DNA from: a virus
Lineage: Duplodnaviria; Heunggongvirae; Uroviricota; Caudoviricetes
Reading direction: 5' to 3' (one strand)
DNA length: 45,005 nt
Virus record (IMG/VR): IMGVR_UViG_2778261502_000007
Span: 1-45,005 of that record
In this document: piece after piece, positions 3,185 to 15,397 of the stretch
Numbering within the stretch: position 1 is the first letter of the stretch
How the letters are laid out: each line of letters begins with the position of its first letter
Made by a program: the position numbers and the translations under genes
The notes under the pieces: generated by a model
Told to the model about the DNA's origin: nothing
Databases searched by the model: none
The model's input: the letters and a program-made list of their open reading frames with translations, nothing else

Positions 3185-3355
3185 TTAAAGTTCGTGTGCC
3201 ATCTGGTCTTTTTCGACACATATTTCACTACAATATTTTTTCATTTCCGTCGTTGGGATAACTCCACGCATGAAATGAAGTGGTCTTTTAATGCTTTTGC
3301 TTTCTTCAACTTCTTTATCGCAAAGGTGGTAAGCACATTTTATTTTCTTAGTCAT
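3185..3355 (-). CDS. ydaE: YdaE-like Cys-rich small protein (56 aa)
   Basis: Hand translation [56 protein letters not shown]; below track size cutoff; start overlaps kilR stop (ATGA). Confidence 0.55.
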   Translation of the reverse strand: MTKKIKCAYHLCDKEVEESKSIKRPLHFMRGVIPTTEMKKYCSEICVEKDQMAHEL

Positions 3356-3576
3356 CACCATGACTCCGCCTTTACAGGTAAACCATCACGACCGAGGAAG
3401 ACTTTGATCATGCAGTCAGTAATGCATGTTTTTGTGGTCAGGCTACGGATATAAAGTTTCCTCTTTTTAATATTATTTGCCGAGGCAATATATGTCCGGC
3501 CTTCATGAAGAACATAATCGCCAGGAGTCACACACTGACGTGGTATTTCATCAGTTCCGAAGTGATGTGCAATCAT
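3355..3576 (-). CDS. kilR: KilR-like division inhibitor (73 aa)
   Basis: Track ORF 3355..3588; second ATG ([15 protein letters not shown]...) has GGAG 7 nt upstream; ends ...PVKAESW. Confidence 0.6.
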
Positions 3577-3921
3577 AATTATCTCCATTTTTACAAATGA
3601 ACTTTGTTGATGCGGCGCCTGGTGCCTCCAGGTGACTGCAACCAGTTAACAATTACAGTCGGCTTTCCCACCCAAACCAATAAGGACTAACATGACTTTT
3701 AACTGTGCCGCGTGCGCTTAGCCGCATTCACCGCATCACAAAATTCACTTTAAAAAGGGCGGACATCAGTCGAACTTCAAGAAAAAACTGATGCCGCCAA
3801 GACTACACACAGCAGTGTTGTTATTCACAACCGGAGGCGCACTCCCACCATTTAAATTTAACAGACAAGACCGACTCTTTATGGATATCGGAAATGCGCC
3901 TTCGTGTTGTATGCCTGTCTT

Positions 3922-10549: not shown

Positions 10550-10679
10550 AAACGATTTGCGGGAAAAGGATAGTTAAGTAGAATTGCTGCGGGTGCTTGA
10601 GGCTGTCTGCCTCGGGCATGCCACTGTAAGGCAGACAGAGAAAAGCCCCAGTTAACATTACGCGTCCGGCAAGACGCTT

Positions 10680-10760
10680 AACATTAATCTGAGGCCAATT
10701 TCATGCTTTGCACATGTAGGTTAGCCTCTTACGCGCCGGAAGGCAAGGAGAAGCAGGCTA
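10680..10760 (-). ncRNA. Sok-like antisense RNA (approximate)
   Basis: Inferred from hok family organisation only; boundaries not determined. Confidence 0.3.
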
Positions 10761-10915
10761 TGAAGCAGCAAAAGGCGATGTTAATCGCCCTGATCGTCAT
10801 CTGTTTAACCGTCATAGTGACGGCACTGGTAACGAGGAAAGACCTCTGCGAGGTACGAATCCGAACCGGCCAGACGGAGGTCGCTGTCTTCACAGCTTAC
10901 GAATCTGAGGAGTAA
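10760..10915 (+). CDS. hok: Hok/Gef-family type I toxin (51 aa)
   Basis: MKQQKAMLIALIVICLTVIVTALVTRKDLCEVRIRTGQTEVAVFTAYESEE; in-frame upstream leader from 10703; structured 5' region with 9 bp inverted repeat CTGTCTGCC...GGCAGACAG. Confidence 0.85.
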   Translation: MKQQKAMLIALIVICLTVIVTALVTRKDLCEVRIRTGQTEVAVFTAYESEE

Positions 10916-11981: not shown

Positions 11982-12271
11982 TGGCAGATTTACGTAAAGC
12001 GGCGCGGGGCCAGATGTGTCAGGTCAGAATTCCTGGGTACTGCAATCACAATCCCGAAACTTCCGTGCTGGCGGATTACAGACTGGCGGGGACGTGTGGA
12101 ACAGCGACAAAGCCACACGATATGCAGGCTGCAATTGCCTGTAGCTCATGCCACGATTTAATCGACGGGAGAGTAAAAACCAGCGATTACACCAAAGAAG
12201 AATTACGCCTGATGCATGCAGAAGGTGTTTTTCGCACACAAGAAATCTGGAGAAAGGAAGGTTATTTATGA
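11978..12271 (+). CDS. YbcO-like Cys-rich protein (DUF1364-like)
   Basis: MMADLRKAARGQMCQVRIPGYCNHNPETSVLA... with several Cys/His; ATGA overlap with Q gene. Confidence 0.5.
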   Translation: MMADLRKAARGQMCQVRIPGYCNHNPETSVLADYRLAGTCGTATKPHDMQAAIACSSCHDLIDGRVKTSDYTKEELRLMHAEGVFRTQEIWRKEGYL

Positions 12272-12819
12272 TTTACCCAACAAATACAGGAAAAAGCGGG
12301 GAACACCTTCGTCTCACCACGCTGGAAAGTGTCTGGATTCAGGGAAAACTGCGTATGTGGGGGCGCTGGTCGTATATTGGCGGCGGTAAGACGGGGAATA
12401 TGTTTAACCAGTTGCTGGCATCCAAAAAATTGACGAAAACAGCCATCAATGAAGTTCTGCGCAGGATGAAAAAAGCGGGGATTGATAAGACGGAACTGGA
12501 GGCATTTTTGCGGGAAATGCTCGACGGTAAGCAGAAAAGCTGGTTGTCTCATTGTACTGATGCCGAGGCGTTATGTATTGATCGGGTAATTAGCGAAGTG
12601 CTGGTCGAGTATCCGGGATTAATTAGCATCCTCCGACAACGATATGAAGGGCGGGGAATGAGCAAACTGAAAATGGCAGAGCAGTTAAATGAAAATCATC
12701 CTGACTGGACATTAATTACCTGTCGACGTCGTATCGATCAATGGCTGATGATTGCTGAATTTATGCTTTATAAACCAATGTTCACGGCACAAAAAAAACT
12801 ATTGCAAAGTGAGCAATAA
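12268..12819 (+). CDS. Q-family late antiterminator (183 aa)
   Basis: ATG 12268 after AAGGAAG; ...KLRMWGRWSYIGGG... resembles QuuD-type Q; followed by terminator, promoters and late genes. Confidence 0.55.
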   Translation: MIYPTNTGKSGEHLRLTTLESVWIQGKLRMWGRWSYIGGGKTGNMFNQLLASKKLTKTAINEVLRRMKKAGIDKTELEAFLREMLDGKQKSWLSHCTDAEALCIDRVISEVLVEYPGLISILRQRYEGRGMSKLKMAEQLNENHPDWTLITCRRRIDQWLMIAEFMLYKPMFTAQKKLLQSEQ

Positions 12820-13295: not shown

Positions 13296-13660
13296 GCAAA
13301 ACAAATGAGGTATAGGTTTTTCAGCACTGGCGTTTTTTTCGCGGGAAAGGTCTCGTATATCCTTTATCGCTCTCCCGAATTATAATGGAGACCAGTTATG
13401 ATTTCGGTGCTGTGTTTTTTGATACTATCGGAATAGTGCATTATTGGTGGGATTTTTTTGATGTTTCCTGGCAGGGGCTGATTATGCACTATCCCGATGT
13501 TATTAACATCACAAAATGAGGTGAGCCCCATGTGCGGGGGTGGTTTAAGTGGTTGTTTAGCGGGGAAACTACAGTATCTGATGGTATGTCAGGTATTTCG
13601 GGAGGCACCCGACACCTCACCTATATTATAATAATACTCTTCAGCACTTACTGATTTGAC

Positions 13661-13688
13661 CACCGCCTTAACAGGCGGTTTTTTTTCG
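13661..13688 (+). terminator. Intrinsic terminator
   Basis: CCGCC-TTAACA-GGCGG plus T8. Confidence 0.5.
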
Positions 13689-13859
13689 GTAATTTGCAGA
13701 ATTGTACGCTGAATAAGCATTACATCGTTAAATTTATAACTTATTCCGAATATGCGGTGCTTGCTTATTGTTAGCTTGCTGACATTTCTGTATCTTGCTG
13801 CGCCGCAGGTTTCCCCTGTAACGACGCTTGTATGATGAATCATTTAAACTTTGTAATTT

Positions 13860-13945: not shown

Positions 13946-14027
13946 CCGTCACTAACTCATTGGGTAAGAGTGCATAACACATATTGTTGTTTTGTGGTGC
14001 GGGGTTCGAGTCCCCGGTGACGGTCCA
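13946..14027 (+). other. tRNA-like element (tRNA remnant or atypical tRNA)
   Basis: Canonical acceptor CCGTCAC/GTGACGG, T-arm CGGGG-TTCGAGT-CCCCG and 3' TCCA, but anticodon arm does not fold canonically. Confidence 0.3.
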
Positions 14028-14054
14028 CTTGTAATGGTAAATATACTTTTAACA

Positions 14055-14077
14055 GGCTCGCTTCGGTGAGCTTTTTG
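14055..14077 (+). terminator. Hairpin with UUCG tetraloop and T-run
   Basis: GGCTCGC-TTCG-GTGAGCT then TTTTT. Confidence 0.4.
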
Positions 14078-14110
14078 TATGAGTTCAATCCGGTTTATAT
14101 TGGCGAAAAA

Positions 14111-14148
14111 GGGCGCGGCTGTCGGATTAAAGCCGCGGGACAAAGTCC
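14111..14148 (+). repeat. Structured motif copy A
   Basis: GCGGCT-GTCGGATTAA-AGCCGC then GGAC-AAA-GTCC; followed by ATG at 14149. Confidence 0.5.
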
Positions 14149-15010
14149 ATGAAGAAGAATAAGTATCTGCCTCCTTCAGGAGACATGTTTATACTACTAA
14201 GCATTTAGAATGGTTTAAATCCTCAGATTAACCTTAATTTCAGATAAGGCTTATTTCATTTTTTCGCGCACACCCGGCGCACATCAAAAACCACATAACC
14301 TTTCAGGGGTGAGCTTACGGGATGATCAGTGTGACTTGAGCTGGTCACTCCGGGCGGAGGCTCATCCACTAAAAGGAAACGTCACGATGTTTGGGATTTT
14401 CAAAAGAAAACCCGTAAGCCCATTGTTGAAATAAAGATGATGGAAAACTACGTGATAATGGGCGGCCGGTGGGTGTTTTCATGTGGCAAGAATCATTTTT
14501 CAGATTATTACAGTTGAAGTGATTTTATTCCTTGTTATTATACACCTGTCTTCTGGGAGAGTTATCTTATTCCCCGATAAGAATCCATATGAAGAGTAAA
14601 AATCGTTCAGGAAACAGGATCGCTGATTTGTAATTGGCTAGTCAGTGGCTGGAATCGCTCTGGCAGTAGATGAGACTCACTTATATTAAGCACTGACGCT
14701 TTATTCGTGGTAAGTTTTCGTAACTGTCGCTTTTTGTTTTGTAATAAAAACAAAACATCACGGTGTTGGTGTTGTTATTTTACAATAGCGGGATGGTGTA
14801 TTTTCGGTAGAAATGTTGTGTTTCTTTGGAGAGTCGGAAATACATCATTCCGGTGTTGTAAATAACACCAAAGAGATGTTTCCCGGTATGAGAGTGGTTT
14901 ACATTGTTGCTTTTGGAACCACAATATCTGGCATAAAGTCAGATATTCAGGGAAGTCCACAACATCTCAATTTCACTACAATAAAAATGATTCATCTTCA
15001 GCATTGTTCA

Positions 15011-15036
15011 ACCGCCGCACTAGGCGGTTTTTTTTG
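15011..15036 (+). terminator. Intrinsic terminator
   Basis: ACCGCC-GCACTA-GGCGGT plus T9. Confidence 0.55.
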
Positions 15037-15120
15037 TGTTGAATTCAAAAAAATACACGGACACTGATAATGTCCGTGTGGCAATGCCATGTAAGTCAAC
15101 GATGAATATGACACAAAAAA

Positions 15121-15157
15121 AACGCGACCGTCGGATTAAGGTCGCTGGACAAAGTCC
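15121..15157 (+). repeat. Structured motif copy B (compensatory stem changes)
   Basis: GCGACC-GTCGGATTAA-GGTCGC then GGAC-AAA-GTCC; followed by GTG at 15158. Confidence 0.5.
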
Positions 15158-15397
15158 GTGAAGCATAACGAATTTCCGTTCCTCCCCCCGTTCGGGAAGT
15201 GCAAAAAGTATATAAATTAATTTTTCTCGTTTAAACAGGAAAGTTAATCTGAATTTCTGGTAATCCTTATTCCCGTACATTAATTCTTCGCTTTTCATAT
15301 CAGACTATGTCACACAAAAGGCATTTGCGGATTCCTTCGATGGGATGTTGTTTTTTACGGGCCGCTGGTGGCCTTTTTTATTTACAGGAGAAAAAGT

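Follow-up and report, generated by a model that had tools for sequence, protein, structure and literature searches.

A duplicated two-hairpin motif in the late leader of a lambdoid prophage

The window analyzed here is a 45,005-nucleotide stretch of a Caudoviricetes virus (IMG/VR record IMGVR_UViG_2778261502_000007, positions 1 to 45,005). It includes a 2.6-kb stretch without long open reading frames (ORFs), flanked on one side by a DUF1133/Q-like antiterminator gene (12268-12819) and on the other by a lysis cassette composed of Phage_holin_8 (from 15398), a second holin and a GH108 endolysin. This stretch is the late-operon leader of a lambdoid prophage. It carries a tRNA-Thr, a tRNA-Gly and one tRNA-like sequence, and the terminator scan found 16 terminator-like sites in the region, compared with 2.9 expected. 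Within the leader, a motif of two adjacent hairpins is present in two copies, A and B, which had been noticed earlier from the DNA alone (the sequence-only reading) and assigned to the plus strand. Our analysis indicates that the motif, read on the minus strand, is probably the tail (small hairpin and terminator) of two small RNA (sRNA) genes of ~80-90 nt. These genes apparently belong to an uncatalogued sRNA family, whose unexpected feature is a homologue in nearly every Escherichia coli chromosome.

Both copies were located in the sequence with the layout described in the sequence-only reading. On the plus strand, each consists of a GC-rich stem that encloses the identical 10-nt loop GTCGGATTAA, followed by the second hairpin GGAC-AAA-GTCC and a start codon (Table 1). 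The pattern GTCGGATTAA-N7-GGACAAAGTCC occurred twice in the window, also when three mismatches were permitted, and 0.00 matches were obtained with 100 dinucleotide-preserving shuffles of the window. Between the stems of copies A and B, two pairs were altered on both sides (G-C to A-T and T-A to C-G). The repeat finder returned a 54-nt core with 80% identity, beyond which the similarity was patchy for ~150 nt toward higher coordinates. The copies are therefore diverged paralogues and not the product of a recent simple duplication, which the sequence-only reading had named as the outcome that would speak against it. That reading had overlooked the extended similarity and the divergence of the copies, and also a run of A residues directly 5′ of the motif on the plus strand of both copies. 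The same two-copy arrangement, with an identical spacing of 1009 bp, was present in one IMG/VR contig (3501 and 4510, minus strand), which is probably of the same prophage type as the window.

Predicted minus-strand genes

Read on the minus strand, the motif is a double-hairpin intrinsic terminator, because the GGACUUUGUCC hairpin and the GC stem with its 10-nt loop are followed by a U-run. The terminator stem comprises 6-7 bp with a folding energy of -10 to -12 kcal/mol, so that the GC hairpin and the U-run that define an intrinsic terminator are both present. The terminator scan accepted only loops of up to 8 nt and missed this terminator solely because its 10-nt loop exceeds that limit.

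Each gene would have its own sigma-70-type promoter (TTTAAA, 17 bp, TA(A/G)TAT or TATACT) and would be transcribed antisense to the late transcript. The putative copy A promoter, with a 17-bp spacer, matches the consensus at 8 of 12 positions of the -35 and -10 hexamers. The putative copy B promoter (TTTAAA-17-TATACT) was found independently by the promoter scan and matches at 9 of 12 positions. In the predicted RNA, a hairpin of 6 bp forms the 5′ end, and an unpaired pyrimidine-rich stretch of ~20 nt, the likely pairing region, comes next; the 3′ part consists of the 4-bp hairpin GGACUUUGUCC, the 6-7-bp GC stem with the loop UUAAUCCGAC, and the U-run. The 5′ end of copy A was placed from the promoter, and its 3′ end from the U-run and the mapped end of the K-12 homologue described below. 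Inspection of the sequences by eye revealed no conserved ORF in the sense of the transcript, as expected for an sRNA gene. The ATG codons of this sense lie at or before the predicted start, are absent from many variants, and are in different frames in K-12 and in the prophage copies. We have good confidence in this minus-strand sRNA gene model.

A covariance model (R1), built from the variants of the motif described below, detected only these two sites in the window, and the next site scored 19.2 bits (E 0.024). The latter is a second, weaker hairpin-plus-terminator module that adjoins copy B, with the order GGCAUUGCC, then ACACGGAC..GUCCGUGU, then AUUUUUU, and is possibly a backup terminator. 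In the phage vB_EcoS-683R6, the equivalent module (3281-3340 of the phage stretch, minus strand) again begins with GGACTTTGTCC and has a strong U-run, located behind a first terminator whose U-run is weak. Two terminators in tandem may give rise to two RNA isoforms.

Table 1. Positions of the motif, the predicted minus-strand genes and associated features (window coordinates unless stated otherwise)
Feature	Position	Strand	Basis or remark
Copy A, stem CGCGGCT/AGCCGCG	14114-14120/14131-14137	+	Plus-strand reading
Copy A, loop GTCGGATTAA	14121-14130	+	Plus-strand reading
Copy A, second hairpin GGAC-AAA-GTCC	14138-14148		ATG next, at 14149
Copy A, -35-like TTTAAA	14214..14219	-	Putative promoter; invariant in A-type and B-type prophage copies and in K-12
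Copy A, -10-like TAGTAT	14191..14196	-	Putative promoter; TA(A/G)TAT in all A-type copies, TAGTAT in K-12
Copy A, predicted transcript, ~79 nt	14106..14184	-	R1 103.8 bits, E 1.2e-19; fold; covariation
Copy A, 5′ hairpin of sRNA	14169-14184	-	Predicted
Copy A, single-stranded CU-rich stretch of sRNA	14149-14168	-	Predicted
Copy A, small hairpin of sRNA, GGACUUUGUCC	14138-14148	-	
Copy A, terminator stem-loop of sRNA	14114-14137	-	
Copy A, U-run	14106-14110	-	Plus-strand A-run directly 5′ of the motif
Copy B, stem GCGACC/GGTCGC	15124-15129/15140-15145	+	Plus-strand reading
Copy B, loop	15130-15139		Same as copy A loop
Copy B, second hairpin	15147-15157		Same as in copy A; GTG next, at 15158
Copy B, -35-like TTTAAA	15230..15235	-	Promoter scan, span 15235..15207
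Copy B, -10-like TATACT	15207..15212	-	Promoter scan; aligns with -10 of other family members
Copy B, predicted transcript, ~86 nt	15115..15200 (5′ end approximate)	-	R1 73.2 bits, E 2.2e-13; fold
Copy B, 5′ hairpin of sRNA	about 15181-15199	-	Central region differs from copy A
Copy B, small hairpin of sRNA	15147-15157	-	
Copy B, terminator stem-loop of sRNA	15124-15145	-	
Copy B, U-run	15115-15122	-	Plus-strand A-run directly 5′ of the motif
Second, weaker hairpin-plus-terminator module	15048..15114	-	Adjoins copy B downstream; terminator scan 15079..15055
Micro-ORF of copy A, 19 codons + stop	14149..14208	+	Antisense to sRNA; judged not a gene
Micro-ORF of copy B, 20 codons + stop	15158..15220	+	Antisense to sRNA; judged not a gene
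K-12 MG1655 sRNA-like gene	NC_000913.3 about 2,043,091-2,043,181	+	Unannotated; yodB-serU spacer

Prophage relatives and covariation of the stems

Relatives were gathered with the motif pattern from viral contigs, which yielded 115 stretches; 119 copies came from prophage contigs. The layout was kept in all 119 copies. In each of them, a plus-strand A-run precedes the motif and reads on the minus strand as a U-run behind the hairpin (5-9 residues long in most copies). B-type copies were present in other contigs too. When 58 distinct units were aligned in the minus sense, a conserved block (ATAAG-N-CTTAT and AAGGTTAAT) came first, then TTTAAA, a 17-bp spacer and TA(A/G)TAT, and, seven bases further on, the 6-bp hairpin. 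The unpaired CU-rich stretch (CUUAUUCUUCUUCAU and variants) is ~20 nt long and leads into the small hairpin, behind which lie the terminator and the U-run. The region is mosaic, with variants of the 5′ hairpin, the central stretch and the terminator occurring in differing combinations among the copies.

In the window, the block upstream of the -35 hexamer of copy A (14222-14262, minus sense) consists of the 11-bp palindrome ATAAG-N-CTTAT and AAGGTTAAT, and it is also present in K-12 (1390-1425 of the K-12 stretch). AAGGTTAAT is close to the ArcA-type GTTAATT core, and the block may be a regulator site common to the chromosomal and prophage genes.

Covariation was analyzed for three helices in 31 distinct variants, which are related sequences collected with a pattern that fixed both loops. 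Standard pairing was observed in 93.7% of the helix cells, compared with 41-55% when the partners were slid against each other. Changes on both sides were found at five pairs, three in the terminator and two in the 5′ hairpin, where they were compensatory. The number of cells changed on both sides was 31, compared with 13.1 ± 3.5 in shuffled alignments, and was reached in none of 500 shuffles. The search for further copies proposed in the sequence-only reading thus returned relatives with covarying stems, and its suggestion that the stems are under selection for pairing is supported. No variation was seen in either loop or in the four small-hairpin pairs, parts that the collection pattern had fixed. 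A scan anchored on the small hairpin alone recovered one further loop variant, TTAATCCGAT, and its other matches were due to chance. The invariance of the loops exceeds what termination needs and suggests a protein or RNA partner.

The relatives were also informative about the strand. The 5′ hairpins found most often (GUCCCC..GGGGGC, 45 copies) need a U.G pair when read in the minus sense, at a place where the plus sense would have a C.A mismatch. Folded variant by variant, the minus-sense form of the 5′ hairpin was the more stable one for 19 of 23 variants. The alignment-wide count was only weakly asymmetric (22 G.U versus 15 A.C pairs); it is less clear because in some rows the 5′ hairpin is out of register in the MAFFT alignment, and the per-variant folds are the cleaner strand test. 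The plus-strand placement of the motif in the sequence-only reading is not supported: the promoter, the U-run, the G.U pairs and the 3′ end mapped in K-12 all fit the minus strand.

Among species-representative genomes, Escherichia ruysiae was the sole true match for the prophage form, which is therefore essentially limited to Escherichia. Full-length relatives of copy A were found by sensitive BLAST in 297 of 5426 complete E. coli genomes. E. coli W, M8 and UMNK88 are among the strains with A-type copies.

A chromosomal homologue between yodB and serU

When copy A was compared by BLAST with the same 5426 genomes, a 45-nt match to its 3′ module was found in 5354 (98.7%), including K-12 derivatives and BL21. 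The match lies in the yodB-serU spacer and varies little among chromosomes. The promoter part of this locus reads TAAGACTTATC...AGGTTAATTTTGGTATTTAAACC, a 17-bp spacer and TAGTAT, followed by a differing 45-nt body, and the 3′ part reads GGACTTTGTCC CGCGGCT TTAATCTGAC GGCCGCG TTCCTTTTTT. The terminator contains a U.G pair in the sRNA sense only, which corresponds to the minus sense of the window. Homology between K-12 and the prophages is confined to the promoter block and the 3′ module and ends at the edges of the gene, the flanks being unrelated. The model R1, which was built without the K-12 locus, scored it with 54.7 bits (E 1.6e-9). No feature is present at this locus in the curated RefSeq record of MG1655, Rfam 15 gave no match to it at E values up to 1, and literature searches on yodB, serU and sRNA turned up no named sRNA.

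An RNA 3′ end at the homologous terminator is real in K-12. Term-seq of MG1655 lists an ‘orphan’ 3′ end at 2043181 (+) (PMC7815308, Supplementary file 1), with 2241 reads in lysogeny broth (LB) at an optical density (OD) of 2.0 and 1864 reads in M63 glucose at OD 0.4, and without an entry for LB at OD 0.4 (PMC7815308). The printed sequence, AATTATGGACTTTGTCCCGCGGCTTTAATCTGACGGCCGCGTTCCTTTTTT then GACTCAATTA, places this end at the last T of the U-run TTCCTTTTTT in the predicted sense. For the K-12 homologue, then, an RNA ends in the U-run in vivo, and the published orphan end gains a candidate gene. A p19-capture study reported an abundant double-stranded RNA (dsRNA) cluster at 2,041,159-2,041,583 in U00096.2 that depends on RNase III (PMC7373196). 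With an offset of 1,976, inferred from the position of serU, the left edge of this cluster lies 2 nt ahead of the small hairpin and the cluster reaches as far as serU, so that both strands are transcribed at this locus.

Two other explanations were considered. The motif could act only as a terminator or insulator between convergent transcription units, with no RNA function. Such a role would suit the convergent arrangement of yodB and serU in K-12, the position downstream of tRNA- and sRNA-like plus-strand units in the window, and the richness of the region in terminators. It would also suit the left edge of the dsRNA cluster, since RNA read through in the sense of serU may end just past the motif. 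It leaves unexplained the promoter-like region, the covarying 5′ hairpin and the module boundaries common to K-12 and the prophages, as well as the invariance of both loops amid variation of the stems; moreover, the plus strand has no U-run behind the hairpins in the prophage copies. We consider this explanation improbable. The motif could also be a decaying remnant without function, left by a degraded gene or a mobile repeat and spread by recombination among lambdoid prophages, as the shuffled parts of the mosaic region and the truncated terB beside copy A might indicate. Compensatory substitutions, invariant loops, retention with little variation in 98.7% of E. coli chromosomes, and the condition-dependent expression and precise 3′ end in K-12 make this explanation barely credible.

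The plus-strand micro-ORFs

In a structured plus-strand leader, as suggested in the sequence-only reading, the second hairpin would mask the ribosome-binding site of a small ORF, which has 19-20 codons in the window and 32 in most relatives. The peptides quoted in that reading are correct translations. An ATG or GTG stands directly behind the motif in all prophage copies, and the late operon runs on the plus strand. The micro-ORF of copy A is a shortened form, with a stop at codon 20, of an ORF of 32 codons. This longer ORF is intact in 86 of the 119 copies, and its ratio of nonsynonymous to synonymous variation (pN/pS) is 0.37, compared with 0.61 and 0.80 in the other frames. This ratio is a weak signal, which would allow for some coding constraint on the plus strand. 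It is explained in part by the opposite strand, because the best-conserved residues, ILLS and GLN, overlie the -10 and -35 hexamers of the predicted sRNA promoter.

Other properties of the ORF argue against a leader that controls it. In 33 of the 119 copies it is frameshifted or truncated, often through 1-nt indels in the 5′ hairpin. The 20-residue peptide of copy B is unrelated to that of copy A past the first few residues, and the K-12 homologue has no start codon at the ORF position (ATA, with a stop after 6 codons). Variable sites were distributed over the three codon positions as 14/11/15, that is, without third-position bias, and the 32-residue peptide matched no family in NCBIfam or PHROG. 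The only Shine-Dalgarno sequence is GGGA, which lies inside the hairpin, and none was found outside it. Together with the G.U pairs and the U-run, which fit the minus strand, these observations render a plus-strand leader very improbable. What had been taken for a hairpin at the ribosome-binding site is, in the antisense transcript, the small hairpin ahead of the terminator. More generally, a covarying hairpin pair beside a start codon may be the terminator of the other strand. A type I toxin-antitoxin system of the hok/sok kind was also considered and rejected: no membrane-spanning stretch is present in MKNNKYWPPSGDMFILLSFRSGLNPQINLNFR or the related peptides, and the true sok lies elsewhere in the window.

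Mode of action

The family is most likely composed of small, modular base-pairing sRNA ‘morons’ that extend from promoter to terminator and reside in the RNA-rich late leader of lambdoid prophages. The modular design is clear: the promoter and the 3′ scaffold are constant among the paralogues, and the 5′ halves are exchangeable and would behave like seeds. For the prophage genes we infer the transcription start sites, expression, Hfq dependence, and base pairing on host or phage mRNAs. Their architecture fits that of Hfq- or ProQ-dependent base-pairing sRNAs. Trans-acting, chaperone-assisted base pairing as the mode of action is, in our judgment, an evenly balanced proposition.

Several observations weigh against the minus-strand sRNA model. 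The promoter hexamers match the consensus at only 8-9 of 12 positions, and that of copy A falls under the threshold of the scan. A terminator loop of 10 nt is large, and the single-sequence folds gave modest z-scores (-2.4 and -0.8). In the commonest prophage variant, the U-run (CUACUUUU) is weak, although the second module behind it has a strong one. The mapped 3′ end belongs to the K-12 homologue and not to the prophage copies; it lies 283 nt past yodB and, for this reason, could be the end of a long yodB 3′ untranslated region. The model gives no explanation for loops that are more invariant than a plain terminator needs, and the plus-strand ORF retains the coding signal described above. 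Finally, searches of the window for targets by loop complement, central stretch and duplex energy returned nothing other than the cis site. The start region of the holin gene has a 13-bp match, seen by eye, that was unranked in the target scan and is not claimed.

A cis-antisense role is plausible because the sRNAs are antisense to the late transcript. The minus-strand RNA would pair perfectly with read-through late RNA upstream of the terB and holin genes, leading to RNase III cleavage or blocking leaky expression of the lysis genes in lysogens. YUNR motifs are typical of the loops of antisense RNAs, and the terminator loop begins with UUAA, which is of this type. Both copies are oriented against the late leader, with copy B ~200 nt upstream of the first holin gene, and in the phage vB_EcoS-683R6 the gene adjoins the holin gene S. 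The RNase III-dependent dsRNA cluster between the motif and serU in K-12 (PMC7373196) and the chimeras that PasA, encoded at the same position in enteropathogenic E. coli (EPEC), forms with its cis-encoded neighbor (PMC8550237 supplement) are in line with such a role. On the other hand, the K-12 homologue lies outside a phage late operon and still keeps the promoter and the 3′ module. Cis pairing does not require invariant loops, since both partners change together, and the 5′ halves differ between paralogues like interchangeable seeds. A cis role is compatible with trans action and not exclusive of it. As the account of the family, we regard cis-antisense pairing as unlikely.

A further, tentative proposal concerns the relation between the sRNA-type genes of host and prophage. 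E. coli might possess a yodB-serU sRNA made in stationary phase and in minimal medium, and the prophage paralogues might reuse this host ‘chassis’ while swapping the 5′ half, either to gain new seeds or to compete with the host RNA. If this is true, the genes would share their regulation and their protein partner, and the loops UUAAUC(C/U)GAC and GGAC-UUU-GUCC would constitute a specific protein- or RNA-recognition element. We hold this proposal to be possible, and doubtful. The family is easy to study because K-12 has a homologue.

Neighboring elements in the leader

The tRNA-like sequence at 13946-14027 (+) was called tRNA-Tyr(ata) by ARAGORN only and is below the threshold of the Rfam tRNA model. 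It is followed by a weak terminator (14054-14080), and this unit is convergent with the sRNA of copy A. Its equivalent in E. coli M8 was called tRNA-Val(aac). Beside copy A on the other side lies a terB/tciA remnant (14389-14436, +) of 15 codons and a stop, where E. coli M8 has an intact TerB-family gene (3339-3764 of the M8 stretch). The block upstream of terB (14248-14388) is conserved out to Klebsiella phages. These phages have only this adjacent block in common with the window and not the sRNA, which sets the boundary of the sRNA module. Because the next upstream gene in E. coli M8 is the divergent terB, the minus-strand transcript would be at most ~290 nt long.

Two further sRNA-like units are encoded on the plus strand. 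The unit at 14745-15035 ends in the terminator ACCGCCGCACTAGGCGGTTTTTTTT and contains GU-rich stretches (CGGTGTTGGTGTTGTTATTTTACAAT) that resemble the R1 region of GcvB. Its match to GcvB was weak (20.6 bits, E 0.11) and did not reach the gathering score of 42; from its sequence, this unit could be a candidate prophage mimic of GcvB. The unit at 13492-13691 is homologous to it (repeat families D2 and D9, spacing ~1350) and gave a sub-threshold match to STnc100 (28.4 bits, E 0.0012), relatives of which (STnc100/PasD) have been reported beside Pas sRNAs. The sok antitoxin RNA at 10591-10765 (+) was a clear match (Rfam RF01794, 113.6 bits), and the prophage therefore carries a hok/sok-type toxin-antitoxin locus.

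Comparison with known sRNAs

Rfam 15 was searched at gathering and permissive thresholds with the window, the subregion and the K-12 locus, and the families covered included Esr41, AgvB, AsxR, STnc100, sok and GcvB. No family matched the predicted transcripts 14106-14184 (-) and 15115-15200 (-), even at E values up to 10. A text search of the literature for the motif sequences returned only chance matches from unrelated organisms.

The put RNAs of HK022 and the boxB hairpin of the lambda nut sites are cis-acting hairpins of phage transcripts that are located immediately downstream of the early promoters and act on the transcribing polymerase. The plus-strand reading suggested this comparison at first, as the motif, like put with its two hairpins and like boxB, consists of conserved hairpins in a lambdoid transcript. 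Unlike these elements, the motif lies in the late leader and has its U-run on the opposite strand, and one of its homologues is not part of a phage.

The Hfq-binding 3′ module of sRNAs such as SgrS and RyhB comprises a U-rich stretch, one or two hairpins and a poly-U tail. The family resembles this module with its unpaired U/C-rich stretch, short hairpin, GC terminator hairpin, 3′ U-run and length of ~80-90 nt. The likeness is one of architecture only, and the family differs in that its 10-nt loop and small hairpin are invariant across paralogues. OmrA and OmrB exemplify pairs of paralogous sRNAs in which the ends are conserved and the middle or the seed varies. The members of the family likewise have the promoter architecture and the 3′ end in common and diverge in their internal sequence; in contrast to OmrA and OmrB, one paralogue is chromosomal and the others are on prophages, and the whole 5′ half varies.

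STnc100/PasD, AgvB, AsxR and Esr41 (RF02076, RF02702, RF02703 and RF02676) are, like the family, promoter-terminator ‘moron’ units in the spacer between Q and the lysis genes, and the weak STnc100-like unit in the window is 400 nt away. Unlike them, the family matches no Rfam 15 family. Its closest analogues are PasA and PasC of EPEC E2348/69 (PMC8550237; bioRxiv 10.64898/2026.05.13.724894). PasA, PasC and PasD were included in the comparison, and PasB, which is located in a structural-gene operon, was left out. Identity with these sRNAs was rejected, as the PasA and PasD fragments and the EPEC PasA locus differ in sequence (PasA reads ...GAAGUACAUCUAUCCUUUUGAGCCAGCACCUCUCCACCGAAAGUCAGUGCUGGCUGUUUUUUU, which is unrelated) and neither of the prophage regions with PasA and PasC (PP2 and PP5) in EPEC E2348/69 contains the motif. 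In their organization, PasA and PasC are similar to the family: they are minus-strand genes of lambdoid prophages, located between the Q/tRNA region and the holin-lysozyme cassette, with terB and RusA as typical neighbors, and their variants have a common 3′ end, differ in the first ~40 nt, and have been acquired repeatedly. In pathogenic E. coli, prophage sRNAs of the Q-to-lysis spacer (Pas, AgvB, AsxR and Esr41) are emerging as a layer of control over the host, to which this family adds an example.

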